Assembly: GCA_965223265.1 (NCBI GenBank)
Contig: OZ244999.1
Span: 5,120,001-5,184,000, forward strand
DNA: 64,000 nt
Direction: 5' to 3'
Origin: Planctomycetota bacterium
Lineage (GTDB): Bacteria > Planctomycetota > UBA8108 > SXIK01
The notes under the pieces are model-generated. The model saw only the letters and a list, made by a program, of their open reading frames with translations, was not told where the DNA came from and ran no database searches. This document shows positions 1 to 28,568 of this stretch, piece after piece; the first letter of the stretch is position 1, and each line of letters starts with the position of its first letter. The position numbers were made by a program, and so were the translations under genes.

Positions 1-928
1 CGTTCCGGCCTTCCGTCGGCGAGGAGTGACGCGTCAGGCGCCGCCGCGACACCCCCTCCTGATCCGTTGGCGATGCGTCATTAGGCTGTTTGGATTGTCC
101 AGCCCTTCCCATGGCAGCGCGAATACAGAAAGCGACCGGACTGTAACAAACGTAACTCAAAAACACGATCGGTAGGACGACCTCTGGAACGACGCAAGCG
201 AGCACTGCTGCAAAGATCAAATAGGCGAACAAGTCAAAGCTGTGTTTGCGGGCAAAAAACCAGCTACCGGCGTGGCCATACACCAGTCGGTTGGAAACCA
301 TTGTGAAACCAAGAAACAGTGCCAGTACAGGCAGTACGACGGGAACCGAATCGACGATTCGCTGAATGCCGACCTCCCCCGTGTGACTCGCTAGCCACCG
401 CAGCTCAGGCTTGTCGAAGCTCGACAGATACGCATAGAAAATCGACAGCGATGCGATGCAGCCCGCCGCGCCGGGGGTCGGCAACCCCTTGAAGGCCATA
501 TGACTGCTCTCGTCCGGAGAATTCTCGGCCGTAAAACGAGCCAGACGCAGAGTCGCCCCAACGAAGTACGCCAACGAAAAAATCGTCACGATTCTACCCC
601 ACGTCGGCGACGCCGCATGGCTCATCTGGATGATCATGAACGCCGGAACGAGCCCAAAGGTGATCAAATCGCAGAGTGAATCGAGCTGCGCCCCGAGCGC
701 ACTCGAGCCACCGGAGACGCGCGCCACCTTGCCGTCGAAGACGTCGAAAACCATACCGACAAAGACGAGCCAGGCAGCGGACGCCAAGATCTGAGTGACG
801 TCGACGCCGTCGGGCACCGGAGCGCCAGGGCCGGGGATCTTCCGCAGAAGAACGATCGCCATGAAACCGCAGGCGCCGTTACAGATCGTCAGTAGACTCG
901 GGAGCAGCACGCTACGGTTGACTTCCAT
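1..928 (-). CDS. pssA: CDP-diacylglycerol--serine O-phosphatidyltransferase (3' end runs off the window)
   Basis: Not in the ORF track because no stop lies in the window. Manual translation from ATG 928: MEVNRSVLLPSLLTICNGACGF...FDVFDGKVARVSGGSSALGAQLDSLCDLITFGLVPA, the CDP-alcohol phosphotransferase motif DGxxARx8GxxLDxxxD; directly downstream of psd. Confidence 0.93.
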   Translation of the reverse strand, partial: MEVNRSVLLPSLLTICNGACGFMAIVLLRKIPGPGAPVPDGVDVTQILASAAWLVFVGMVFDVFDGKVARVSGGSSALGAQLDSLCDLITFGLVPAFMIIQMSHAASPTWGRIVTIFSLAYFVGATLRLARFTAENSPDESSHMAFKGLPTPGAAGCIASLSIFYAYLSSFDKPELRWLASHTGEVGIQRIVDSVPVVLPVLALFLGFTMVSNRLVYGHAGSWFFARKHSFDLFAYLIFAAVLACVVPEVVLPIVFLSYVCYSPVAFCIRAAMGRAGQSKQPNDASPTDQEGVSRRRLTRHSSPTEGRN

Positions 929-1082
929 CGACAAACAGGATCTCCGCCAATTTCGGGACCGCGGCAAAAACTACGGACGACTTCCAGCCGCAAAGCGCAG
1001 CTGTGGGTTGCCCGCCATGTTCTAGCCTCGAGCTTGGCCGTTTCGCGCCGGCCTGGCCGGACGAGCTTGCCGGGGAGCGTCG

Positions 1083-1919
1083 TTAACGCTGCGGTATCAC
1101 TCCCGCAGAATCAACATCAAACGTCGCCAAAACCGTCTCGCCGCCACTCACCTTATCGCCAACACGTACCCGCACATCCGGACGCAGCCGCTCGGGAATC
1201 AAGATCTCGGTTCGAGAACCATACTTGATCATACCCAACAGGCCACCCCGCGCAACGCCAACACCCGTGCCGAGAGGGCAAATAATGCGTCGTGCCACCG
1301 CCCCGGAGATTTGACGGATCGCGATGCAGACGCCAGGAGGAAAGGGAGGCTCCGTGCATTCAAGCACGATCGTGTTCGACTCGTTTTCCTGTGCCGCACG
1401 TCGATCGCGCGCGTCATGAAAGAATCCAGGTCGATAGCGAACAGCGCGAATGCAGCCGGACGTTGGAGCTCGGTTGACGTGGACGCTAAAGATCGAAAGA
1501 AAAATACCGATGCGCACGCACGGTTCGTCGATCTCCGCTGGAATCCCGTCTGCGGCGGTTGCCAGTGATTCGATATCCCAGATGGTGCCGTCGGCGGGCG
1601 CGACGAACAGCGCCGGGGCGTCCGGCACACGTCGCTTCGGGTTGCGAAAGAACAGCACCCCCAAAGCCGCAGCCGACGCGATCGGGACCAGGGCGAGAAA
1701 CCACCAGATCGACGCGGTCAACGCTAACACCACCGTGAGGCTGGACAAAGCCAACGCGAGAGTCAAGTTGATCAAGATTTCGCGATCGCCCCACGCCACG
1801 AGGTATCTCTCATCAGCACGGAGCAGGTGGTCGGGATGCGCGCGGCGTTCGATCACTGCGTCTGTGGCGACGCGCAGCGCGCCACGGTGTCCGACGGCTG
1901 TGGTAGAATCGTCGATCAC
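1083..1919 (-). CDS. psd: Phosphatidylserine decarboxylase proenzyme
   Basis: FFRNPKR, APADG, IGIFLSIFSVHVNRAP, ENE and the self-cleavage motif IKYGSRTE; next to pssA. Start uncertain. Confidence 0.92.
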   Translation of the reverse strand: MIDDSTTAVGHRGALRVATDAVIERRAHPDHLLRADERYLVAWGDREILINLTLALALSSLTVVLALTASIWWFLALVPIASAAALGVLFFRNPKRRVPDAPALFVAPADGTIWDIESLATAADGIPAEIDEPCVRIGIFLSIFSVHVNRAPTSGCIRAVRYRPGFFHDARDRRAAQENESNTIVLECTEPPFPPGVCIAIRQISGAVARRIICPLGTGVGVARGGLLGMIKYGSRTEILIPERLRPDVRVRVGDKVSGGETVLATFDVDSAGVIPQR

Positions 1920-2295
1920 TCACCCTCCCGGCTGGATTGAAGTTGACAGTTCTTTCAGGCTCCGTTAGAAGCCGAGGTTACTCGGATCGGTCCCCAGGAG
2001 AAAGAGCCTCACGTCGAAATCGGATCAAAGGTGCCGCGGTTGGCCACGGCAGCGCGGAAACCCGAATCCTCCTTGACCCTCGTGACGTTTGCCTCAAGGC
2101 GCAACGCCGAAACAAGGAGTGAGGGGCTAACAGGACGTAGCGGGTGCACCTGGTCCAACGACACACGCGCTCAAAAGCAGCCATCCCGTGGCGCGGGAGT
2201 CACCGTCTCCGCTTCTACCGGGACCAGACTGTGAGCCATGCGCTGGGCGAACGGGCCCAGAGAGAAACACGCAGGAAGAAATCTATAGGAACTGA

Positions 2296-4084
<1,789 letters not shown>

Positions 4085-7762: not shown

Positions 7763-10700
7763 CTACACCTGCTCCATCGCGATGCGCTCGCGTCTCGCAA
7801 CCGAACGCGCATGCAGGATGATCAGCACGGGGCTGGCGACAAACACTGAGGAGTAGGTTCCTGCGAGGATGCCGATCAGGAAGATGAAAGCAAAGCCGCT
7901 GACCGCCTCGGTCGCAAAGAAGAGCAGGACGAAGGTCACACACAGCGTCGTCAAGGATGTCCAGAGTGTACGCGTCAAAGTCTGGTTGATGCTCAGATTA
8001 ACGATGTCTTTGAAATCCATCCGCTTCTTGGCAAACAACTGCATGTTTTCGCGGATGCGGTCAAAGATGACGATCGTGTCGTTGATCGAGTAACCAACAA
8101 TCGTAAGAATCGCCGCCAGCTCGGCGAGATTGATCTTCACAGAAAACGTGCCGCCGAAGAAGTAGTCGACCATGGCGACAAGTCCGATGCTGATGAGAAT
8201 ATCGTGAACGAGCGCCACAATGGCGGCGACACCGAAGATGAACTCAAAGCGCAGCGAAACGTAGAAGATGATCCCGAGCATCGAGATGAAAAGTGCGACA
8301 ATCGCATCCTGCTGAAGCGTCGAGGCGACCTTAGGCCCGACGGTCGCAACTTCGGAAAACGCCTCCGACAGTTCAAAAAGTCGATCGTTCCCGGCCGCTG
8401 TGGCGCCTGGTCCGTGACTATGAAAAAAATCTGTGAACGCCTCCTCGACGACGGTTTGCGGCGGTGATTCGTTCGACCGAAGGGCCTGGACCGGCGGCTG
8501 ATAGGCGTTGGTGACAAACTGATAGCGTTTGACACCGTCGGTGTCCGACACCAGAGACACTGACTCGACCGAAATCCCTGTGAAGCTTCCCACCGGCGTC
8601 CCTGACTCCGACAGGCGTGGCTGCAGATCCGGATTCGCAGCGAACGCGGCGTTGAGTCGATCCTTAAAGTCCTCTTCGGTGAGGTCCGCTTCGACTCGGA
8701 GAAAATTGACGTCCATCGTCAGATAGAAGTTGCCTTCGCTGCCAGCGTCGGTCGCCAACTTCCACTCCCGCAACGGAATGAGCGGCGGCAGGAGCAAGTT
8801 GTCCGCGCGCAGCATGTCTTCGAGTGCTGAACGGACGCGCTGGGCCGGTCCAATCTGCGACCCCGCGTCGATAGTGCCGTCTGCGACACTCGGCGCTGCG
8901 GAGATGCTGGTGCCCGCATCCGCAGGGGGCGTTGAGGCGCTCTGCGAGGTCGCCGCGTCTTCCGCCGGTGCTGATTCCGACTCTTGGGCATTCGCCGCCG
9001 GCAAACCGCCATGCCCCTCGCTGGCTCGCGTTCGCAGCGCGAACGCACTCGCCTCGTCGGACGATCCGGCCAAGGTCTGTAGAGTCCAGTCGCGGAAGAG
9101 CTCTGGCTGGGCGGTGGCAAGCGTGGCGATCTTGCTCTTCATGTCTGCGACTGAAATCGGGCGACTCAGCTGCATGTTAATGCGCGCGCCACCCGTGAAA
9201 TCGATGCCGTAGTTGTTGCTGCCGCGCGCGATCACGAGGACCCAAGTGGCGACGATCACAAACACCGAGCCCGTCAGAAAACGCCTCTGCACGCGCGGGA
9301 AGTTGATGTTGGGCGTCTCGAAGGCCTGAAGCATACGAAACGATTTGACGATCCCGACGTTGACGAGGAAGCTGACGATGAGTCGAGTGACAAAGATCGC
9401 TGTGATGAAGCTGATCACGATGCCGCTGATGAGCGTGACGGCGAATCCTTTGACGGGTCCGGTGCCGAACTGAAAGAGGACCATGCCAGTGATGAACGTC
9501 GTTAGGTTGGCATCAAAGATGACCCAAAAGGCGCGTCGATAGCCCGACGCGAGGGCCTGCAAGACCGGCTTCCCCTTCTTCAGCTCCTCGCGCACACGCT
9601 CGAAAATGAGAATGTTGGCATCCACGGCCATACCGACGGTGAGCAGAATGCCCGCCATGCCTGGGAGCGTGAGCGTCTGGCGAAAGCACGCGACGTAGGT
9701 GAGGATAAAGAAGATGTTCAGCACCAGCGCGAAATTCGCCACGAGGCCGCCGGCGAGGTAGTAGACCGCCATGATCAGCATGACGATCGCAAGGGCGCAC
9801 AAAACCGCCTGCAAGCTCGACTGAATTGAGTCTTGCCCCAAGACCGACCCGACGGTGCTCTCAGAGACAAGCGCCGGTTTGGCCGGCAAGCTGCCGCCGC
9901 GAAGGATCGTGACAATGCCGATGACATCGTCCTGTGTGAACTGCCCAGAGATCTCGCCGCTGGCGCCGATGCGCTCGCTGATGTTCGCGACCTGAATGAT
10001 GTCATTGTCGAGCGTGATCGCAAGGCCGCGGTCGACATTGCTGCCAGTCAAGTTGCCGAATTGAAAGGCGCCTTCACCGTCGAACTCGAAAAACACCGCC
10101 GGTCCGTATGTGCGCTGGCTACGAGTTGGGCTGACGCGCTTGAGGTGGCTACCGCTCACGATCTTGTCGGGCGAGTTCTCAAGCGTGCGCTTGATCGGGC
10201 GGCCGGCTTCGTTCCTCTGGGGCTGGAATCCGGCGGCTGGGTTGTCGGGATCCTTCTCGACGACGACGCGAACGACGTAGAGCGGGCGTTCCGGGCGCGG
10301 TCCCTGAAAGTTCGGGTCGGCGACTTTCTTCTCAACCCACTCGCGCTCAGCGTTGACGTAAGCCAGCTCTTCGCGCTCGATTTGAGCTTGCCGCTCGGGC
10401 GTCTGCTCGGACTCGATCGCCTCCAATCGAAACTCAAGCGTGCCGGCCGTTTCGATCTGCTGCTTGATGGCGCCGACCGACTGGGCGTCCTGGCCGGGGA
10501 GCTGAACGACCAGCTGATCCCGCCCCTGAACCGCGACGCTGATGTCTTTGAGTCCGTAGACGTTCAGGCGATTCGTGATGATGTCCTTCACTTCGCCGGC
10601 GACCTTGTCGCGCTCAGACTCAACGCGGCTGAGATCGATCGAGTAGGTCAGCTCGGAGCCGCCGACGAGGTCAATGCCGTACTGGAGTCGGGTTTCGGCG

Positions 10701-19244: not shown

Positions 19245-20253
19245 TCATTCACATGGTGAGAAACTCTCGCACTCAAACCGATCCACAACGACATCAGGAC
19301 CGCAATCTGGGAACGGAGTCGATATTATCGTGCCGTCGACAAAGAGGGCGTTAAGGAGAAACACCACATCCGCCAACTCAACACCATCGTCATCGTTTAT
19401 GTCTCTCGCCTCATCACAACTGGCAGACTCTCCACCGCGAAAAAGGGCATTGAGCAAAAAGATGGCATCACTCAGATTTACAGCGCCATCGGTGTTCGAG
19501 TCGCCTCTCACAAATGGCTGCCCCGGCCCCTCCCTAACGATCACCTCCATTGCAAACCCGTCGTCCAACGCTCCCGCTCTACCGGCGATCACATAAGACC
19601 CCTCACTGCTGTCGACTATGTCGAATCCCGCTCGTCCCACAACGGTGGCCTTTCCTCGGAATACGCCCTGTGGATTCGTCAGTATCAAACACGTATTCAT
19701 TGAGGTATCGTTCGATTGTCCCATCACTAAGAAACCCGACGTCAACTCTTGGACCGAGTATCCGATTTCACGTCCGCTTCCCGCCAACCTCTTCTCCCAC
19801 ATCAACCCCCCGACCTTGTCCAACCGCACAAGATAAACAGAGGAAATTCCTCTTCGATTACTATAACCAACCACAACAAAACCTCCGTCCCGAGCAGATT
19901 GAATATCTAACCCACCGTTGGACCCCATCCCGCCGAAAGTCCTCTGCCAAGAAACGTTTCCTTCGGAATCAGACTCAAAAACATAGACATCCGTCTGCTC
20001 CGCCCCAAACGAGGCACTCTTGCCAACCACAACGTGGCTTTGGCCGTCTTCCGTGACCGCCACATCATAACCGTAGTCATTCCTTTCACCTCCGACCTTT
20101 CTCTGCCACAAAGGCTCTCCTGCCGCGTTAGTTCTAATAAGCAAGACGTCGAAACCATTAATTGTTTCAACCCTCGTACTACCCGCTAAAACAAACCCGC
20201 CATCTGGCCGCTCCTCCACTACATAAGCCACGTTCTCCGCTTGCTCACCAAAC
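19245..20253 (-). pseudogene. C-terminal part of a transposon-interrupted secreted beta-propeller + dockerin-like protein
   Basis: Repeats of G..LW.+..GG...D.GY.V....DGGFV; C-terminal FVRGDSNTDGAVNLSDAIFLLNALF; joins in frame to 24319-24770. Confidence 0.85.
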
Positions 20254-20387
20254 TGCTAAGTCCCACAGTATCTGGCGCGGAAATCCCAGATTAAATGGCA
20301 TGGTGCTGATTCGCGGGTGCGAGATGCGATTTGCGAGGCGAGAAGGCGCGGGTCGTCGTGTCCCGGACGGCACGACGACCCGGGGAA

Positions 20388-20705
20388 TCACGAAGGGCGA
20401 GGCGTGGCGCGAGCGTCACCGCGACGATCGCGGAGCTCGGCGAGGAACTCGACGGCGTCGACGAAATTCAGCCGCTTGACGATCATGACCAGGTCGATCG
20501 GGTTGAAGTTCGTCTCGCAGCGAAAGCAACGCGCGAGGTTGGTGGACGCCTTCGTCGCGGTGTTGAATTCGCGACACCGCGGACAGAGGAAGCGCACGTA
20601 GCCCTCGGAGATTTTCGCGGGGACGCCGAGCAGATCGAGGAGCCACGCGATCGGTATATCGTTTCTCAACGACCGCAGGAGCTTGCCGGAGAATCGTCCT
20701 GTCAT
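20388..20705 (-). CDS. Stand-alone CHC2-type (primase-like) zinc-finger protein
   Basis: FLCPRC...NLARCFRCETNFNPIDLVMIVKRLNFVDAVEFL resembles the DnaG Zn-binding domain; ATGA overlap with the upstream gene. Confidence 0.8.
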   Translation of the reverse strand: MTGRFSGKLLRSLRNDIPIAWLLDLLGVPAKISEGYVRFLCPRCREFNTATKASTNLARCFRCETNFNPIDLVMIVKRLNFVDAVEFLAELRDRRGDARATPRPS

Positions 20706-20995
20706 GCGACGCCACCTCCACCGCTCGGCGCCTTCAAATATCGGATTCGTTGCAGGCTCTCGAGATACTCTTCGAGGACGATCTGGAGCGCTCGCAGCTG
20801 AGCGCCCAAGGCGGCGAGATAGGCGTCTTGCTCGGTGTAGGAGGAGCGTTGCGTGTAGTCGAAGTCGAGATCGGGGTACGCGGCGTTCAGAGCGAACAGG
20901 GCGATCTCGAGGTTCGTCGCGAGGGTCATCAAAACGGCGAGCTCAGGATACTCGGCGAAGTCGTTGACTCGAGGCATCAGGGTCTTGTGGAACAT
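20702..20995 (-). CDS. Transposon-encoded helical hypothetical protein (97 aa)
   Basis: GGAG RBS, coupled to both neighbours, amphipathic helices. Confidence 0.75.
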   Translation of the reverse strand: MFHKTLMPRVNDFAEYPELAVLMTLATNLEIALFALNAAYPDLDFDYTQRSSYTEQDAYLAALGAQLRALQIVLEEYLESLQRIRYLKAPSGGGGVA

Positions 20996-21014
20996 GGCGC
21001 GTCAGTCTCCGTTC

Positions 21015-21806
21015 TCAGGGCAGATGGAACTCGGGGGCGGTGTCGTTGACGAGCGCCTCGGAGATCTTCTGGACGTTCTTGCTCGCGGCCTGAATGAGGC
21101 AGGCGGTGGCGATGTTGTTGATGCGCCGCGGCACGCCGCTTGAGTAGTCGTGGATGAGCGACTTCGCTTCAGGCTCGAAGACTTTCTGCGAGGCGCCGGC
21201 TGCGCGCATCTGAAAGTCGATGTACTCGACCGTCTGCTCCTTGCTGAGCGGCGGCACGTGGTAGCGCACGCTGAGCCGATGCGTGAGATCGGCGTGGCGC
21301 GCTCGGGTAAGCTCCTTTCTCAGGGTCTCTTGTCCGCTGAGGAGGATCTTCAATGGCGGGCCGTCCTCGAGTCCGGAGCTGACCAGAAGTCTCAGATCGG
21401 TGAGCGACTCCGAAGGAAGCAGGTGCGCTTCATCGATGACGAGGATTGTCGTGTGCTCGTTCGCCCCGACGCGATCCAGGATCTGGAGGAAGAGCCGCTC
21501 CTTGCCACGGCGGGGCTGCTCGCCGAGGCTGGAAACCAGGAGCTTCAGAATGCCGTTTGCCCCGACGTAGGTCAGCGAGAGATAGATCGGGTCGTAGAGG
21601 TTGCGGCTCAGCGAGCGCACGAAGAGCTTCACCAGAGACGACTTCCCCACCCCGGTGAGTCCGGTCACCAGGCCGATCGAGCCCGACTTGGCGAGGTACT
21701 CCAGTCGAGCGAGTCCCTGGGTGATGCGCTCGTCGGAAAGAATCTGCTCGACGGGCGCGCGCTCGAGAAAGGGCTGCGTCGTCATCTTGAAATGGGTGGT
21801 GAACAT
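21015..21806 (-). CDS. ExeA/TnsC-like AAA+ ATPase
   Basis: MFTTHFKMTTQPF, Walker A GLTGVGKS, Walker B LVIDEAH, ILLSGQ, GVPRRINN; TGATG coupling to the transposase. Confidence 0.92.
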   Translation of the reverse strand: MFTTHFKMTTQPFLERAPVEQILSDERITQGLARLEYLAKSGSIGLVTGLTGVGKSSLVKLFVRSLSRNLYDPIYLSLTYVGANGILKLLVSSLGEQPRRGKERLFLQILDRVGANEHTTILVIDEAHLLPSESLTDLRLLVSSGLEDGPPLKILLSGQETLRKELTRARHADLTHRLSVRYHVPPLSKEQTVEYIDFQMRAAGASQKVFEPEAKSLIHDYSSGVPRRINNIATACLIQAASKNVQKISEALVNDTAPEFHLP

Positions 21807-23368
21807 CAGTCCTCCTTTCTGCCTGCGAGTCGTTGAAGCTCGTAGGCGATGTAGGGAATGGATTTCTCCGGAGCCTTCTCGAAGGCCCTCAGCAAGAGGA
21901 CTTCGGTGAGGCTGGGAGTACGGTTGTAGAACTTCTTGAGTTCCTCGAGCTCCTCGGCGGTGAAGCTCGAGAGGGCGCCCTTGCGCCCCATGAGCCGGCC
22001 GAGAAGGCATGCGAAGTCGGTGAAGGGCCACTGGCGAGAGGCGATGACACGACGGTAGTCGATCCCCTGGGCGCGCTTCTTGAGCTCCTCGTCGTGCTCA
22101 CGGCGAAGAAGCTCCAGATAGTTGTGCTTCGCTTTGGCGGGAGGGGCGGGAGCACCGGCGTCCTCGCCCTCTTCGCGCTCGTGAAGGACGCCCTTTCCGA
22201 GGTACTCTTCGTTGCTGGAGTAGATGAGAACCGTGTCGGGCGCGGAGAAGGGATCGTAGCGGACTTCGACCTTGTCACCGCGCAGACTCTTGTCGACGCG
22301 ATAGAAGCGGCGATCGAGCTGGACGTCGGAGAAGTCCGGGTGAACGCGCCGCGTCTCGCGGCACATGAAGAACTCGGTGACGCGCTGAATGTCGACGTGT
22401 CGGATAGGCCGTTTGAGGCCGGCCTCGGCTCGTGCCTCGGGTGTTTCGCCGGTCTCGGTGTTGACCTGGCGGTGGTAGGCCACGGTCTTCCAGGAATCGA
22501 AGCTTCCGTTGAGCGAGTCGAGAGTGAGGATCTCGCCGGCTCTGACCTCGGCCTCGAACTGGCCCTGTATCGTCTCGATGAGTCGTTCGACGAGACCACC
22601 CGGTGGCGGATCGCCCTTGCCGCGATGGATGAGCCGGGTGACAACGGCAAGGCATGCCGCCTTGAGCGCTTTGGAGATATAGACCTTCGCCTGATCGACA
22701 TAGAGCTCGTCCGAAGCACCGTGCTTGGCCCACGCCCGCAGCAAGCAGTCGATCAAGACCTCGAGATTTTGCCGAAGGTAGTAGCGCCCCTCGACGAGCG
22801 AGCGGCTGTAGCAGTCGATGAGAACACAGAGGAAGGTGGGGACGACTTCGCCGTCGTGCAGCACGTAGGGTCCATCGGCGAAGTCGCCGACCCAGAGGGC
22901 ATGGGTGGAGTCACGAGTCCAGCGTTTCCGGACTTTCCTCCTCTCGACACCGAGCTTCAGCCGCGTCGCGCCGGCGATCTTGAGGTAGCGGAAGAGGGTC
23001 GAACGCGGAATGGTCTTTCCGTGCTGAGCCTGGAGGAACTTGTTGATGGCGAAGTGGGAGCGCAGTGGCTGATCACGCTTCAGCTCGACGGCTTTCTCGA
23101 CGAGCTCTTTGCCGTGGGCACGCGGTTTCCCGCGATCGCTTCGCGGCCTGCGGGCAAGACCCTCGAAGCCCTCCTCGCGATAGATGCGAAGCTTCCGCCT
23201 CAGGGTCGAAAGAGCCGGCTTGCGTCGCGATCCGTCGGGAAAGATGCGCTCTTCTTTGGCGAGCTCGCGGAGAAATCGCGCGGCTTCCTCCTCCGGCACC
23301 TCGCCGATGACGACGGGCTGGAGAAGAGCCGCCCAGAAGATAGCCCAATCGAGATCTTTCGCTTTCAT
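21806..23368 (-). CDS. DDE (rve) transposase with Mu-like C-terminal domain, 520 aa
   Basis: HTH STLRRKLRIYREEGFEGLARRPRSDRG; LWVGD, LYVDQ, LVERL catalytic triad; VEVRYDP C-terminal barrel. Confidence 0.93.
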   Translation of the reverse strand: MKAKDLDWAIFWAALLQPVVIGEVPEEEAARFLRELAKEERIFPDGSRRKPALSTLRRKLRIYREEGFEGLARRPRSDRGKPRAHGKELVEKAVELKRDQPLRSHFAINKFLQAQHGKTIPRSTLFRYLKIAGATRLKLGVERRKVRKRWTRDSTHALWVGDFADGPYVLHDGEVVPTFLCVLIDCYSRSLVEGRYYLRQNLEVLIDCLLRAWAKHGASDELYVDQAKVYISKALKAACLAVVTRLIHRGKGDPPPGGLVERLIETIQGQFEAEVRAGEILTLDSLNGSFDSWKTVAYHRQVNTETGETPEARAEAGLKRPIRHVDIQRVTEFFMCRETRRVHPDFSDVQLDRRFYRVDKSLRGDKVEVRYDPFSAPDTVLIYSSNEEYLGKGVLHEREEGEDAGAPAPPAKAKHNYLELLRREHDEELKKRAQGIDYRRVIASRQWPFTDFACLLGRLMGRKGALSSFTAEELEELKKFYNRTPSLTEVLLLRAFEKAPEKSIPYIAYELQRLAGRKED

Positions 23369-23408
23369 GATCACACCTCGCATGGGGCGAGCGAGGCGTG
23401 ATTCTCGC

Positions 23409-24077
23409 TCACGCCCAGGCTGCGGAGGTTGCCAAGTCGGGGAAGATCGATCGGCCGAAGAGGGAACGGAACACCTGGTCGATCGAGAGAGCTCGAAGTG
23501 CCGCGACGAGAGTGTCCCGCCGTGATTCGCTTCGGTACTTGGCTGGACGGACGGCGAAGACCTTGCGGAAGATGTCGGACCTCGCCGAGCGCTCTCGGAT
23601 GAGGCGGAGAGCCTCCAGGAGCGTGGCGTTGAGAGAGCGAAAGAACGAAAGCCAACGATGAAGTGTTGAGTGCGCGAGGCTGCGCTCGTCGATCGCTCCC
23701 CTGTCGTCACCCTCGTGGAAGACGGGCATGTGTTCGACCTTGACGGCTTCGCGATACGAAAGCTCGTCGATCTGGAGGTAGCGCCGAGCGTGATCGAAAA
23801 CGCAGTCGCGAACGTAGCGTTTCCCCGGCAGCGCGAAGGGCGGGTAGAGCGTGAAGGAGCGCTTACACAGAGGACACTTCCAGCGACTCAGAAGCGACAG
23901 GACAGGTTCGACCAGACGCCTGACGATAACGAGGAACACGCGCTCTCGGTGACCGCGGTAGCGGAACCGATCTGGCTCCCCGCTGCAATTCGGGCAGCGG
24001 TTACAGGTCGGCTGGATCTCACGGCGGCGAACAGCTTCGCCATAGCTCTGTATCGCGTTGACCAAATGGGGTAGCAT
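23409..24077 (-). CDS. DUF6431-like Zn-ribbon + HTH protein
   Basis: CPNC...RWKCPLCKRSFTLYPPFALPGKRY...LSYREA...HSTLHRWL; first gene of the element. Confidence 0.78.
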   Translation of the reverse strand: MLPHLVNAIQSYGEAVRRREIQPTCNRCPNCSGEPDRFRYRGHRERVFLVIVRRLVEPVLSLLSRWKCPLCKRSFTLYPPFALPGKRYVRDCVFDHARRYLQIDELSYREAVKVEHMPVFHEGDDRGAIDERSLAHSTLHRWLSFFRSLNATLLEALRLIRERSARSDIFRKVFAVRPAKYRSESRRDTLVAALRALSIDQVFRSLFGRSIFPDLATSAAWA

Positions 24078-24318
24078 CGCTCTCTCCGTACGGGGACTTG
24101 CGGAGAGAAGTGCACCAACACCGGTCTCTCCGCTCCCCTCTTTACTCGAGGTGAGGCGAGGAGTCGAGCGAAGGTCCAGGGCGCAGCGTCGAACGGGGGG
24201 CGCGGGGTAGGCGGGGTATGATCGGACGGTCGGTTCGGCGGGGTATGCCGGGGCGTTTCCGGGTCAGTGAATCTGAGACTCGTCGCTGCTCACGAGCCAG
24301 AGTTTGTGGGACTCAGCA

Positions 24319-24770
24319 CCAAACCTCTTCTCCCACATTACCTCCCCGACTTCGTCCACGCGAAGAAGGTAAGCTTGTGACCCAGTAGTGCCGCTCCCGT
24401 CCAACCCGAAAGGTGCACTTCCCCCTGATGCCCCCGAAACCACGAACCCGCCCTGATTGGAGGCGACCTGCCGAACGCTCAACGCTTCGTCATATCTCTC
24501 CCCGCCGTAGGAACGCTCCCACATCACTCGTCCGAACTCATCCAATCTCGCCAGATACGCATCTGCTCCTAAAGGGTGGTCGATTCGAACGATTGAACCG
24601 GCAATGATTGAACCTGAGTGCGCCCGATCCACCGATAGCGCTCGGTCATGATTGTCGCCGCCAAAAAACGTCTCCCAGCCCACCTGCGTCTCGAATCCAA
24701 AAATGCCGCGATCAGCCGGCGAAAGGACAGCCCAAGCTACCAGACCAACAATCCGTGTGAACACACTCAT
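24319..24770 (-). pseudogene. N-terminal part of the interrupted beta-propeller/dockerin gene
   Basis: Signal-like MSVFTRIVGLVAWAVL; the same GxVMWExxYGG repeats as 19245-20253. Confidence 0.85.
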
Positions 24771-24883
24771 GACTTCATTGACCAAAAGTGCACCCGATAT
24801 CCTCCTCTGCCCCCGCGGGTCACGTGGCGTCCAAGAGGCACCTGGACGTGCCCCGAGATCCGACGCCGCCGAACACGACTCTT

Positions 24884-25306
24884 TCACTGCGCGTCGGCTC
24901 GAGCTTCGAGTTCGAGCGCGTAGTTTCCTGGCTCGAAGGCCCGCGGGAGCCTCAAGCGCTCACCATTTTCGCGCAGTGTCACTCCCGAGAGCCCGCGAGT
25001 GTCGAATTGAATCGCCTGCTGCACGTCGAGAGTCAACTTCATTTGCAGCTTGCTCTCAACCCACGTGGCAACACCCTGAATCGACGCAATGACCTGACCG
25101 TCGAACGACTTCGCCTGAAACTGCACTGTGGTCTTGCCGTCGACGTCGCTGAGAGTGATGTTCGGCTGTCCGTTGCCCTCGTAGTCGATGGAGACTTTTC
25201 CGGGCCCCTGAGCGGAAATGACAGCTCTCGGAGCCGCCGAGACGAAACGGTAACATCCCGCGGGGAGTGCGATCGCTAGGAGAAGAACGAATGCCTGGGG
25301 TTTCAT
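24884..25306 (-). CDS. Hypothetical lipoprotein
   Basis: MKPQAFVLLLAIALPAGC lipobox-type signal, AAAGG RBS. Confidence 0.65.
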   Translation of the reverse strand: MKPQAFVLLLAIALPAGCYRFVSAAPRAVISAQGPGKVSIDYEGNGQPNITLSDVDGKTTVQFQAKSFDGQVIASIQGVATWVESKLQMKLTLDVQQAIQFDTRGLSGVTLRENGERLRLPRAFEPGNYALELEARADAQ

Positions 25307-25560: not shown

Positions 25561-28143
25561 TCACTCCTGCACTCGCCCGGGAAGCACACCGAGCCCGGTG
25601 CTGTCGAGCACAACAATGTCGCCGAACTCGTCCTCGTTCATTCTTGCGAGGCGAAACACCCACATCCTGCGAGCGTTCGCTGCGTAGTTCTCGGGCTCCC
25701 CGAACGTCCCGTCACCATTGCCACGATAGACGGAGACGAACGACCCTTCGTCGTGGTTCATCAGGAGATCAACAGCGCCATCTTGGTCCACGTCGCTGCT
25801 TCGCACGGACCTGGCCCGATATACAGGCCTCTGGTTCCACTTCTCCACGAAGGTCGCACCCCTCTCGCCAAGATACATCCCGACGACGCCGCCATCGACG
25901 ATCACGACATCCAGGACACCGTCCGCGTCGAAATCGTCAACGCAAAGCGCCTGCGGCGGTGTACCCGATCGAAAGCGGCCTCGATCCACGAAGCGCCCCT
26001 GCTCGTTCAGCACAACTCGATCGCCGACCAGCAATTCGTTCACTCCGTCACCGCTCAGATCCGCGACAACTACAGATTCGGTGCCGCTCAGACCGTCCAT
26101 GGGAAGCGTGATCAGTGTGTCGAACGTTCCACCTGCGGTCCCGAACAGAACTGAAACCGATCCGTGGTGCGAGAGTGCAACATCAGGGAAAGGGTCGGCA
26201 TCAAGCATGCCGACCGCAGCAGCTTCGACCTGAGGCAACGCGTGCCCCGTCTCTATGGGGTCAAAAAAGGTCCCATCACCGTAGCCGAACGCGACGGAAA
26301 CGGATTGTCGATTCGCGACCACCACATCTTCGATACCGTCACGGTCGAAGTCCGCAGTCGCTATCGCAGAAGGCTCGAGCCCGACCGTGATGAGCCCCGC
26401 CATAACCAACACGCCCTCGCCAGTATTGTGCATCAATGTGACTGAACCACGACGAGGACTTGCTGAGCGCGTCAGAACCGCAACGTCATCAAGACCGTCA
26501 TGGTCGAAATCGGCAACCGTCATACGATCACCCCCCGGCGAAGGTATGGACATCGTGACGCCAGGATCAAAGACTCCCGGCGCCCCCATTCCGTATCGAA
26601 TCTCCAAGCCGGAACTTCCGGAGCAGAGCAGATCAAGCATGCCGTCCGCGTCGAGATCGACGATGGTCTCCCGATAACACGTTCCGCCAGAACTCACACC
26701 CACCACTGCACCGTCGTTACGTTCGGGGCGGTTAAGAATCGACACAACGCCGTCACGATCTCGCCACACGCCAGCAGCGAGCAAATCTTGAACACCGTCG
26801 GAATTGAGATCGGCTACGGCGATCGGCCGGTCGAACGCGAGAAAACCGTCAATAGCGAACTGGCGAGCCTCCAGGAAAGTACCTGAGCCAGTGCCGAAAG
26901 CGACGAGGACCGGACCTGGTGTGGGTGTCGGTGTGGTATAGACAAGCGTGCCATAGACAAGATCCACATGACCATCGCCATCAATGTCGGCAACCGAAGT
27001 CGCCGCGCCATGTCTTGGACCACCTTGGACGACCTTCACGGGTGAGGCGAACACACCGTTTCCGTTGTTAACGGAGAGCCAGGTGGCCTCCCTCCCCTGG
27101 TCGTCCGAGAGCCGGTCGCCAACGAAGAGATCTGCAAGCCCATCGCGATTGACGTCGGCGACGGTTACGCGGCTCGGACAGCCAAAGCCGTCAAGGAGCA
27201 GCCGCCCGCCGAATGTCCCATCGCCTCGACCGATCGAGACGACAACATGGACAGTAGAGATTGAAGGGTCGCGACACACCGCGACCACGAGGTCTGGAAT
27301 TCCATCGCCGCTGAGGTCTTCGACGACGACATCGACACTCAGTGCGCGGCTACCGAGCGGCAGCGGATCTCCGGCGCTCGTAAAGTTTCCGGCGCCGTCG
27401 TTCAGATAAGACCACGCCTCGTACGGCGACGAACTCAGGCCCACGACGTCCAAATCCCCGTCGAGATCCAAGTCACTCAGTTTGACGTTCGAACCGTTCA
27501 TCCTGACGCTGAAATCGATCGGCTGAGAGAGTTCGAGCGGCTTCCACGCGAACTCTCTTCCGCCAAGGTTTTCGAGCATGCGAAGACTAGGGCGAAGTGT
27601 GTGACGGTCGATCACCGCCATCGCGACGTCGATGTCGCCGTCGCCATCGACGTCGCCAACGTTGAACTCGCGTGTTGTCGGATCAAACTGGTCGGTGGGA
27701 AGATAGTTCGGCACTCCAAACAGCTCCTGGAAGCCCAAAACTCCGCAGCCGTCTCCCGGCGGACGGTAAGACGCGCAGTCGAGATCATCGGGCGTCGGGT
27801 CTCGGCCGCAGGTGTCAGGACCAGGCGCCGGCGGCGCGTCGCCGGAGCGAAAGAGGTGCAGGATCACAAAAATGGCGTCGGAAACGTCCACTTCACCGCC
27901 ATCGTTGATGTCCCCGGCATCCTGGCACGGCAATTCACCGCCGCCGCGAAAGAGAGAGTTGACGATCGCAAGTGCATCGCTCAGATCGACGACGCCGTCG
28001 ACGTTCGCATCGCCGCGGCGAAAGCGCGCTGACGCTGCCAGCGCCGGCCATGAACTCGCGACGCAAAGCGCCACCACCCCCAAAACCAGCCACGTGCGCC
28101 GGAAAACGATCCACCGGACACTCAACGCGGGGTCTCTTGTCAT
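25561..28143 (-). CDS. Secreted dockerin-like + FG-GAP/VCBS repeat protein
   Basis: Signal peptide, FRRGDANVDGVVDLSD, many DxDxDGxxD repeats. Confidence 0.88.
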   Translation of the reverse strand: MTRDPALSVRWIVFRRTWLVLGVVALCVASSWPALAASARFRRGDANVDGVVDLSDALAIVNSLFRGGGELPCQDAGDINDGGEVDVSDAIFVILHLFRSGDAPPAPGPDTCGRDPTPDDLDCASYRPPGDGCGVLGFQELFGVPNYLPTDQFDPTTREFNVGDVDGDGDIDVAMAVIDRHTLRPSLRMLENLGGREFAWKPLELSQPIDFSVRMNGSNVKLSDLDLDGDLDVVGLSSSPYEAWSYLNDGAGNFTSAGDPLPLGSRALSVDVVVEDLSGDGIPDLVVAVCRDPSISTVHVVVSIGRGDGTFGGRLLLDGFGCPSRVTVADVNRDGLADLFVGDRLSDDQGREATWLSVNNGNGVFASPVKVVQGGPRHGAATSVADIDGDGHVDLVYGTLVYTTPTPTPGPVLVAFGTGSGTFLEARQFAIDGFLAFDRPIAVADLNSDGVQDLLAAGVWRDRDGVVSILNRPERNDGAVVGVSSGGTCYRETIVDLDADGMLDLLCSGSSGLEIRYGMGAPGVFDPGVTMSIPSPGGDRMTVADFDHDGLDDVAVLTRSASPRRGSVTLMHNTGEGVLVMAGLITVGLEPSAIATADFDRDGIEDVVVANRQSVSVAFGYGDGTFFDPIETGHALPQVEAAAVGMLDADPFPDVALSHHGSVSVLFGTAGGTFDTLITLPMDGLSGTESVVVADLSGDGVNELLVGDRVVLNEQGRFVDRGRFRSGTPPQALCVDDFDADGVLDVVIVDGGVVGMYLGERGATFVEKWNQRPVYRARSVRSSDVDQDGAVDLLMNHDEGSFVSVYRGNGDGTFGEPENYAANARRMWVFRLARMNEDEFGDIVVLDSTGLGVLPGRVQE

Positions 28144-28568
28144 CGGAGCCTCCCTTCGCTGTAGGGCGTCGGCCCCAGGGACGCGCGTTCGTGCCCGATC
28201 GCGCACCGACGCCAGTGTGTACGTGCATGCGTGCATGACACAGCCCCAGTCCACAGTTCCCGCCGCGCACCCTCAGGTGTGAACGCGTCGCGAGGCATCT
28301 TCGGTCCAGCCCGCTGACGGTGACATCGTCGCCGACGACATCGCTGCCGACGTCAGGAGCGATGTCCGCACGCTCAAGCTCAAGCGCGCCGGGCCGCAGA
28401 ACGTGCCGGAACGGAGATGCTGCCTGGATCGAACAGGCGTCATTGTAGCGCTGATGCGGACAAGAGGCGGCGAGCAAAACGGCAGAAAACGCGTCAACCT
28501 CCGTGCTCTTCTCTCCTCCACGATCGGACCCAGGCAGACGGAGTTGTGCAACCGCTGGCCAAACCGAA

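Follow-up and report, generated by a model that had tools for sequence, protein, structure and literature searches.

An uncharacterised, ATPase-bearing branch of IS481/Mu/TnsB-type DDE transposons in a Planctomycetota genome

Introduction

Transposons that pair a transposase with an AAA+ ATPase, among them Mu, Tn7 and its CRISPR-guided relatives, Tn5053, Tn552 and IS21, are the main models of target choice and transposase activation, and they are being turned into genome-editing tools. Here, we describe a related element in a Planctomycetota bacterium. It lies in a 64,000-nucleotide (nt) stretch of contig OZ244999.1 (GenBank assembly GCA_965223265.1, positions 5,120,001 to 5,184,000 of the forward strand), which as a whole we call the window; all coordinates below are those of the window unless stated otherwise. 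The element occupies 4065 bp (20254-24318) and belongs to an uncharacterised, ATPase-bearing branch of IS481/Mu/TnsB-type DDE transposons. We consider it probable that it is a complete, autonomous and recently active insertion element, driven by its DDE transposase with an AAA+ helper.

The described systems can be told apart by their ends and their gene content. Mu, Tn7 and Tn5053 duplicate 5 bp of target sequence on insertion. The Mu-transposase C domain is known from transposases with an AAA+ partner protein. In Tn552 of Staphylococcus, a Mu-like DDE protein (p480) is accompanied by an ATP-binding protein (p271); this transposon produces target duplications of 6-7 bp and has two sites per end, a resolvase and resistance cargo, and no zinc proteins. 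Members of the IS481 family of insertion sequences (IS) often produce 6-bp duplications, have TG...CA tips and consist of a single transposase gene in approximately 1-1.5 kb. A zinc protein encoded 5' of the transposase, such as InsA of IS1, is a common regulator layout.

Results

Boundaries, copies and gene content

Read directly from the sequence, the element is 4065 bp long and has TG...CA tips, with all of its genes on the minus strand. The left tip, TGCTAAGTCCCACA (20254-20267), and the reverse complement of the right tip, TGCTGAGTCCCACA (24305-24318), match at 13 of 14 positions, and the full terminal inverted repeat extends over 26 nt with 81% complementarity between its arms (20254-20279 and 24293-24318). 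Ten copies are present in the source genome, a single contig of 9.18 Mb. Each copy aligns over exactly positions 1-4065, eight without a mismatch and two with one, and each is flanked by a perfect 6-bp direct repeat, the target site duplication (TSD). All ten TSDs differ in sequence (GCGATT, TATAGA, GTTAGC, CCAAAC, CGAAAG, GGTAGG, CAAAAC, GCTGGA, AATAAG and GGTCGG). The boundaries, inverted repeat and TSD in the window are far beyond chance, and the ten exactly bounded copies confirm them. In the contigs of all four public runs that contain this DNA, the element forms a unitig of its own, exactly 4065 nt long and at approximately 8-12 times the depth of its flanks.

The features that define the element are as follows; the five genes are called g1 to g5 in the order of their transcription, and protein lengths are in amino acids (aa).

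20254..24318, minus strand: whole element, 4065 bp; ten genome copies aligned over exactly 1-4065
20248..20253, no strand: TSD copy 1, CCAAAC, identical to 24319-24324
20254..20279, no strand: gene-distal arm of the inverted repeat, with the TG tip; complementary at 81% over 26 nt to 24293-24318
24293..24318, no strand: gene-proximal arm of the inverted repeat, with the ...CA tip; contains the terminal 18-bp site at 24296-24313
24319..24324, no strand: TSD copy 2, CCAAAC, read directly
23409..24077, minus strand: g1, 222-aa DUF6431-type zinc ribbon with a helical C-terminal part; DUF6431 in 12 of 13 family members
21806..23368, minus strand: g2, 520-aa DDE transposase with HTH_32, rve, Mu-transposase C domain and a C-terminal extension of approximately 130 aa
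21015..21806, minus strand: g3, 263-aa AAA+ ATPase, MuB/TnsC-like; its start codon shares 1 nt with the stop of g2
20702..20995, minus strand: g4, 97-aa protein; 4-nt overlap between its stop and the start of g5
20388..20705, minus strand: g5, 105-aa stand-alone primase-type zinc-binding domain (C4 ribbon); PF01807 by profile and fold match

An initial annotation, made from the letters of the window, had described a complete element with exact boundaries, a 13/14-bp inverted repeat and the 6-bp TSD CCAAAC around five co-oriented genes. These boundaries proved correct to the base, and five minus-strand open reading frames (ORFs) were found within them.

The transposase and its ATPase partner

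The most likely start of g2 is the ATG at 23368, a choice backed by alignment, which gives a protein of 520 aa. It carries rve (31.2 bits), Mu-transpos_C (PF09299; 32.7 bits, cut-off 21.7) and HTH_32 (27.8 bits) domains, and its DDE triad (D163/D226/E262 in the numbering of a 521-residue translation) is invariant in 15 of 15 sequences. The best solved relative of the g2 profile is TnsB of a type V-K CRISPR-associated transposon (7svw; E 6.8e-10, 41.5 bits), followed by retroviral integrases, and among phage families it matches phrog_310, 'transposase' (E 8.6e-29). The best model among the IS families is IS481 (NF033577), at 104.3 bits against a cut-off of 224; IS21 and the remaining models are far behind. 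Neither g2 nor g3 reaches its IS21 model, the scores being 21.8 bits (NF033546, cut-off 160) and 13.3 bits (IstB, NF038214, cut-off 200). No curated IS-family cut-off is reached, in agreement with the earlier view of a complete element that fits no IS family cleanly.

The downstream gene, g3, matches AAA_22 at 64.4 bits and the ExeA-like model TIGR03015 at 120.8 bits (cut-off 324.5). The Pfam TniB family is not among its Pfam matches. Compared with solved structures, the g3 profile remotely matches MuB (8xvb, 4.9e-6), ShTnsC (4.5e-5) and VchTnsC (2.7e-4), and its phage-family match is phrog_296, 'DNA transposition protein' (E 2.6e-25). Walker A (GxxGxGKS) and DEAH motifs are invariant in 17 of 17 sequences. 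The reading frames of g2 and g3 overlap, the stop of the former sharing one base with the start of the latter. Taken together, the rve/Mu-transpos_C, AAA_22 and TIGR03015 matches support the DDE transposase and ExeA-like AAA+ ATPase that had been proposed for these two genes. We also considered a conserved frameshift fusion of g1 and g2 and rejected it; the g2 frame is open 5' of the ATG in this G+C-rich element but not in its A+T-richer relative L035.

Relatives with conserved gene order

More than 1,297 homologues of g2 are present in a large metagenome protein set, many of them full-length, 55-75% identical and located on contigs of approximately 4 kb, which is how a repeated element assembles in metagenomes. 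An alignment scan of species-representative genomes yielded 60 related loci (a single-protein scan with g2 yielded none), and gene order at these loci was established by tblastn with the five window proteins. The order g1-g2-g3-g5 is present at 44 of the 60 loci, in several phyla, even though the transposases of these elements are only 40-75% identical. At five more loci g2-g3-g5 are present and the contig is cut on the g1 side, three (L013, L016 and L018) have another ORF after g1-g2-g3, one is cut after g3, and seven are fragments. The initial annotation had named accessory genes that do not accompany the transposase elsewhere as a finding that would speak against its reading; the zinc proteins and the ATPase are found with g2 at the 44 loci, and partly at the five others.

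In long assemblies the element occurs in multiple copies. One Desulfatiglandales genome has 10 loci, a Desulfobacterium chromosome 5 and one Planctomycetia genome 11, some of these last broken. Consistent with mobility, 6-bp TSDs surround seven of nine copies examined in the Desulfatiglandales genome and two of four in the Desulfobacterium chromosome, and are also present at L031 and L039. The related elements measure 3.7-4.25 kb, and the tip TGCTAAGTCCCA is common to those of Planctomycetota and Desulfobacterota. A close copy of g2 is found in only 1 of the 40 nearest relatives of the source genome, a patchy distribution of the sort that mobile elements show. Among sampled genomes of the phylum, 8 of 201 have g5-like genes, and one complete genome has 18 copies of the g2-g3-g5 unit.

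Several variants of the element were observed. At L013, L016 and L018, a conserved ORF of 95-120 aa beginning MKVYVGIR... takes the place of g5 (L013:3583-, L016:3675- and L018:3293-); this beginning presumably resembles the N-terminus of IS110-type transposases. The Desulfobacterium version (L035, 4247 bp) has approximately 600 additional bp between g5 and the end (L035:8678-9282), containing an 85-aa antisense ORF at 8942-9199. Near-identical elements were found in a bin labelled Methanophagaceae archaeon (L014) and in a Bacteroidales bin (L015).

More distant relatives contain three genes. DUF6431, DDE and AAA ATPase genes stand in the same order on plasmids of Streptomyces, Thermobacillus, Cupriavidus and Geobacillus (pGS18), with scores against the window profiles of 171-213 bits for the transposases and 118-172 bits for the ATPases. 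These plasmid elements are without g5, and their transposases are shorter (441-459 aa, reaching profile positions 382-443 of 519); relative to them, the transposases of the g5-bearing clade carry a C-terminal extension of approximately 80-130 residues. The Thermobacillus copy measures 3209 bp and has a 6-bp duplication. Against the IS481 model the three-gene relatives score 171, 187, 199 and 249 bits, the last being the DDE protein of pGS18 (249.1 bits), which exceeds the cut-off, is recorded as 'IS481 family transposase' and is encoded between the DUF6431 gene and the AAA ATPase gene. The statement in the initial annotation that IS481 has no ATPase is thus too simple, given that a protein that passes the IS481 model stands beside an ATPase gene; the remainder of that comparison, the 6-bp duplication, agrees with the family background given above. 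The window element (104.3 bits) thus stands furthest from IS481 in a series that begins within that family or beside it. Judging by sequence, the clade of the window element appears to have gained the C-terminal extension of the transposase and g5.

Our searches found no published characterisation of this gene set, only mentions in passing, with ISfinder and TnCentral outside the comparison. In a 2026 bioRxiv preprint, Clostridium sp. JS66 has 15 copies of a DUF6431/DDE/AAA cassette, left unclassified (10.64898/2026.08.16.744336). Similarly, one table row of a Ruminococcus paper carries the DUF6431, DDE and ATPase annotation names, and an excerpt on Tolypothrix places a DDE and ExeA pair within an insertion. 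The three-gene cassette is therefore already in print, though unstudied, and the four-gene branch is uncharacterised.

Insertion sites

The element interrupts a host gene in the window.

19245..24887, minus strand: host gene interrupted by the element; its two ORF pieces lie at 24264-24887 and 19245-20231

When the element and one copy of the TSD were removed in silico, an open frame of 547 codons was restored across this site, and excision at four other sites restored open frames of 411-1260 codons. Because five sites restore long frames, at least half of the ten insertions hit genes. The ten sites have an A at TSD position 4 in eight cases and no other common sequence, and by our own reading the TSDs in other genomes show the same position-4 A. 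Seven of ten copies are co-directional with replication, which is not significant. Target choice is nearly random, with neither safe-site nor site-specific targeting apparent. This comparison of homologous elements, their TSDs and their target contexts, proposed as a check in the initial annotation, yielded relatives with 6-bp TSDs, and diverse sites for the ten copies of the source genome. As read from their translations, the interrupted host protein and an 897-aa neighbour (25561-28254, minus strand) are rich in repeats of a GG..D..G type, with a dockerin-like 'DINDDG' C-terminal motif.

The small proteins

The first gene, g1, encodes a CxxC...CxxC ribbon of the DUF6431 type followed by a helical part. 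The window protein scores 21.1 bits for DUF6431 (PF20020), under the cut-off of 26.6; the domain is present in 12 of the 13 members of its family (best E 4.3e-9), and the nearest Atlas clusters are DUF6431 proteins. The family thereby bears out the DUF6431-like zinc protein of the initial annotation. The structure model of g1 is poor (predicted local distance difference test, pLDDT, 63.3; predicted template modelling score, pTM, 0.47), and a wide structural search from this model returned only generic helical matches (best Z 5.0). The best match of the g1 profile to solved structures has an E of 0.79, and no longer proteins containing g1 were found, which is weak evidence. In three genomes (L032, L059 and L066), the g1 frame contains one in-frame stop near the zinc ribbon, beside intact g2, g3 and g5; this may represent decay of g1 or something else.

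The smallest protein, g4, has no Pfam, NCBIfam or PHROG match. It belongs to a real small family of 19 representative clusters at E<=1e-3, and is present in only three elements: the window element, L011 and L113, a metagenome contig. Its position varies, as it stands between g3 and g5 in the window and in L113 and after g5 in L011. An alignment scan with g4 found no locus in species-representative genome contigs and one (L113) in metagenome contigs, and the family profile found g4 at only 1 of the 60 related loci (L011). The five-gene unit first described is for this reason a property of the window element and not the unit of the family.

The last gene, g5, encodes a primase-type zinc-binding domain. 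Its match to Zn_ribbon_DnaG (PF01807) is 22.0 bits in the window copy, under the cut-off of 24.9, and PF01807 is found in 16 of 16 family members (best E 7.2e-9). The four zinc ligands, C41, C44, C60 and C63, are invariant in 16 of 16 sequences and are followed by NPID. Profile positions 1-90 align with residues 1-91 of the DnaG zinc-binding domain 1d0q (E 1e-4), and the structure model (pLDDT 88.3) has 1d0q_A as its best Foldseek match (template modelling score 0.65, root-mean-square deviation 2.7 over 92 columns, E 3.2e-4), followed by Aquifex primase, Twinkle and T4 primase. The CHC2 zinc finger proposed for g5 at the outset is indeed a primase-type zinc finger; its ligand pattern is C4 and not CHC2.

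The zinc proteins had also been suggested to be TniQ-like target selectors. TniQ is absent among the Foldseek PDB matches listed for the g5 model, and PF06527 (TniQ) is absent, at E<=1, from the 25 most frequent of the 28 families matched by g1 (13 members) and of the 30 matched by g5 (16 members). PF06527 finds nothing in the source genome and matches a single genome among 151 of the phylum. By Pfam and NCBIfam, the five proteins of the element contain no TnsA-like nuclease or resolvase domain, and none has a primase catalytic domain. With no TniQ, TnsA or resolvase, and with diverse, often intragenic insertion sites, the target-selector role is not supported; a role of the zinc proteins as regulators or in DNA recognition may still apply.

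Relatives of g5 beside other ATPases

The source genome contains three g5 paralogues outside the element, each directly behind an ATPase-type gene or fragment. At L081 (G000:C1:2462000-2481000), one directly follows an IstB protein (207 bits, over the cut-off), the pair being preceded by a 375-aa ORF of no family, and another follows an AAA_25 protein that has three tyrosine recombinases in tandem next to it. At L082 (G000:C1:806000-812500; 3071-3762, minus strand), a C-terminal fragment of IstB (99.8 bits) has a stop that overlaps the start of a g5-like zinc ribbon of 94 aa (PF01807, 27.6 bits, over the cut-off). L081 also contains a broken related DDE gene (HTH_32, rve_3 and Mu-transpos_C pieces), an AAA_22 fragment and a 691-aa large serine recombinase.

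Outside the source genome, 14 g5-like loci of the phylum were scanned, 12 of them distinct (L092 and L098 repeat the element of L085). The g5-like gene follows a match to a g3-type ATPase at 7 of the 12, two of these matches being weak. A predicted complex of g3 and g5 from paired alignments scored 0.24 against a mark of 0.32, which speaks neither for nor against binding. Among 27 longer proteins with a g5-like part, 24 have PF01807 or no recorded domain, and none of the 27 is fused to an ATPase. In the protein clusters P0164, P0165 and P0166 (349-474 aa), rve/IS240-type DDE domains accompany a g5-like part that covers 77-78% of the query at 52-56% identity; these may be genuine fusions or may reflect read-through into an IS inserted at that point.

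Repeated sites at the ends and a one-sided array

A matrix for an 18-bp site was built from 16 tips of eight elements. It finds four sites in the window element, two at each end; the other cis features are an array of short repeats 5' of g1 and a hairpin.

20259..20276, plus strand: terminal 18-bp transposase-site-like repeat, gene-distal; score 23.1
20282..20299, plus strand: subterminal 18-bp site-like repeat, gene-distal; score 16.5, position 29 from the tip
24263..24280, minus strand: subterminal 18-bp site-like repeat, gene-proximal; score 21.0, position 39 from the tip
24296..24313, no strand: terminal 18-bp site-like repeat, gene-proximal; score 19.8
24202..24246, minus strand: array of three TACCCCGC-type repeats 5' of g1, confined to the coding strand; located at element positions 75, 102 and 111
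20349..20382, minus strand: perfect 12-bp G+C-rich hairpin, 5 nt after the g5 stop, read in the sequence

The 3625-bp interior of the window element has no match to the 18-bp site. In many elements, a second site on the same strand lies 27-51 nt inside the end, and such subterminal matches number 11 in 2,240 end positions compared to 15 in 55,248 interior positions. The array motif is [AT][ACT]CCCG[CT], typically TACCCCGC, often as two copies 9 nt apart. All 13 elements with mapped ends have 3-6 copies on one strand, 45-120 nt from the tip, across G+C contents of 46-66%. At least three motifs are present on the coding strand in 39 of 44 distinct regions 5' of g1, many of which come from the same genomes (approximately 16 of 21 lineages by our own grouping), and on the other strand in none of the 44. 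The background frequency of the motif in the source genome is 0.67 per kb per strand, and 10 of its 46 motif clusters are those of the ten element copies. The two site repeats at each end, the one-sided TACCCCGC array with its tendency to accompany g5, and the g5 paralogues behind IstB-type ATPases are new here.

The L013 and L016 elements, which are without g5, have no array (0 motifs), and in three plasmid relatives without g5 no 7-mer is repeated three or more times 5' of the DUF6431 gene. Since no relative lacks g1, even where the array is missing, and g5 and the array are absent together, the reader of the array would be g5 rather than g1; this link is weak. A promoter and terminator scan listed no sigma-70-like site; its single terminator-like site is weak and lies within g4, and the hairpin at 20349-20382, which lacks a T run, is not among its results.

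Discussion

A proposed division of labour

We propose that g2 would bind the terminal and subterminal 18-bp sites and pair the ends, cleave their 3' ends and join the TG/CA tips to the target with a 6-bp stagger. By homology, g3 could act like MuB, TnsC or IstB, in that the ATP-bound protein would coat or mark the target, hand it over and activate g2; another probable function is to prevent new insertions close to resident copies. Encoded behind the ATPase, g5 would be a DNA-reading adaptor that works with it. Its best candidate ligand is the TACCCCGC array at the gene-proximal end, which might serve self-recognition, end asymmetry or operon control. The g1 protein, which the three-gene relatives share, would be a DNA-binding regulator or an assembly factor, and g4 a lineage-specific accessory. 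We offer the specific role of g5 only tentatively, and that of g1 is likewise a possibility on which we would not insist.

A broader idea follows from the company that g5 paralogues keep. The g5 family may consist of undescribed transposition accessories, readers of DNA sequence or structure that serve MuB/TnsC-like, IstB-like and AAA_25 ATPases and that would here read the TACCCCGC array. We regard this as speculative and rather unlikely to hold in full. If true, reading of TACCCCGC would let the ATPase tell 'self' ends from target, or would set the asymmetry of the ends, and with a g5 reader the same task would be accomplished without TniQ.

Several observations weigh against our account of the element and its proteins. 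The roles suggested for g1, g3, g4 and g5 are drawn from homology, gene order and co-occurrence. The likeness of g3 to MuB and TnsC is remote (26-29 bits), and its nearest NCBIfam model, ExeA-like, is secretion-associated. The association of g5 with ATPases has exceptions, as 5 of the 12 distinct g5-like loci in the phylum have no adjacent ATPase match, and an IstB match is found at none of the 12 (14 scanned), leaving adjacency to IstB to the source genome. As for the link between g5 and the array, no TACCCCGC motif cluster is present at the two loci that join IstB to a zinc ribbon, and three lineages with g5 have fewer than three motifs (L012, two; L057, one; L043, none). The motif is itself G+C-rich, and 36 other clusters occur in the source genome, which has a G+C content of 61%; L013 and L016, moreover, are close relatives and count as one case. 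Circle junctions and empty sites were not found in the contigs of the four runs, a form of data that drops rare forms, and transposition may proceed by a cut-and-paste, copy-out or replicative pathway. Finally, the bin labels of repeat contigs of 3.5-7 kb are unreliable guides to the host, as the case of L014 and L015 illustrates.

Alternative explanations

The order transposase, ATPase and small zinc protein mirrors tniA-tniB-tniQ, and the best solved match of the g2 profile is TnsB. One interpretation of these findings is that the element is Tn7/Tn5053-like, with at least one of its two zinc proteins acting as a TniQ-type selector by which the ATPase is directed to a particular site or structure. 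The cargo-free Tn7-like element Tn5469 is described as having one TniQ and apparently no target preference (PMC11406308), and TniQ proteins have a zinc finger between helical domains (PMC10293859). We nevertheless think this interpretation quite improbable. PF06527 is missing from the source genome and from the families listed for g1 and g5, and g5 instead aligns end to end with the zinc-binding domain of DnaG, with no TniQ among its listed Foldseek matches. All ten copies have a TSD of 6 bp compared to the 5 bp of Tn7 and Tn5053. The ten sites share only a weak preference for A at position 4 (8 of 10), at least five are in long open frames, and orientation relative to replication (7 of 10) is not significant. 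A different function for g5 could be in replication: during replicative (copy-in) transposition, it would recruit or mimic host priming at the strand-transfer intermediate. Its fold and sequence are those of a primase zinc-binding domain, one paralogue follows an AAA_25 (DnaB/RepA-like) protein, and the element has neither a TnsA-like nuclease nor a resolvase and is present in ten identical or near-identical copies. Intramolecular replicative events would, however, be expected to split TSD pairs, and all ten insertions are simple, with TSDs intact. In addition, the three-gene relatives and the L013/L016 clade manage without g5, and no protein of the element has a primase catalytic domain, so that we give this function little chance.

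Alternatively, the element could be an ordinary IS481-family IS in which the DDE protein alone suffices and the extra genes are passengers or pure transcriptional regulators. IS481 is the best IS model for g2 (104 bits), the three-gene relatives score 171-249 bits with one over the cut-off, and the 6-bp TSD and TG/CA tips fit the family. The behaviour of g4, found in three elements and in two positions, is that of a passenger, and g1 occupies the place 5' of the transposase that InsA has in IS1. These similarities are outweighed, in our view, by the way in which the other genes are tied to g2. Across several phyla and at transposase identities of 40-75%, g1, g3 and g5 keep their order and spacing with g2, and the g2 and g3 frames overlap. 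The Mu-transposase C domain of g2 is one associated with AAA+ partners, g3 matches MuB, TnsC and a phage 'DNA transposition protein', and two site repeats per end recall Mu, Tn7 and IS21. An ordinary IS481 element is consequently an unlikely description of the whole. We favour an autonomous transposase-plus-ATPase element.

Significance

On this reading of an autonomous element with an AAA+ helper, the family is a compact, evidently active and widespread member of the transposase-plus-AAA+ kind, present in multiple copies in complete genomes of at least two phyla. Its position between the single-gene IS481 elements and the Mu/Tn7 machines means that it may show how an IS acquired an ATPase helper. 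Its two zinc proteins come from families with no known role in transposition, and together with cis sites that can be tested they make the element a tractable system for the minimal partners of an AAA+-regulated transposase. For genome annotation, the element explains a recurrent unnamed cassette of 'DUF6431 / DDE-type integrase / AAA ATPase / hypothetical'.

Comparison with known systems

By their defining features as tested, the element is not IS481, IS21, Tn7/Tn5053 or Mu. With IS481 it shares the best-scoring IS model, the HTH_32 and rve layout, the 6-bp TSD and the TG/CA tips. It differs in the added Mu-transposase C domain and C-terminal extension of g2 (104 bits against the cut-off of 224), and in having three or four further conserved genes in 4065 bp where IS481 has a single gene. 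The resemblance to IS21 is one of organisation, in that both are IS-sized and have a transposase, a dedicated AAA+ helper and repeated end sites, as outlined in a report on IS21 (PMC11208146). The ATPase of the element is of the AAA_22/MuB-TnsC type and not the DnaC-like IstB type, and both IS21 cut-offs are missed.

By its description, Tn552 resembles the element in pairing a Mu-like DDE protein with an ATP-binding protein, in the length of its duplications, with which the 6-bp TSD agrees, and in its two sites per end; unlike it, the element has no resolvase domain. The MuA-like and MuB-like pair of phage Mu is recognisable, remotely, in the matches to phrog_310, phrog_296 and MuB (8xvb), although the 4065-bp unit holds only five genes and no phage genome. 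Compared to Mu and the Tn7-like elements more generally, including Tn5053 and Tn5469, the element is only 4 kb long and without cargo, has no match to the TnsA, resolvase or TniQ families, has a 6-bp TSD in 10 of 10 copies instead of 5 bp, and has zinc proteins of the DUF6431 and primase zinc-binding-domain families. It shares with these elements a DDE transposase with a Mu-transposase C domain, a small AAA+ partner whose gene comes directly after that of the transposase, TG/CA tips, transposase sites in more than one copy at each end and a small zinc protein behind the ATPase, in the place of TniQ. By analogy, the element would thus work most like the transposase-plus-AAA+ systems.

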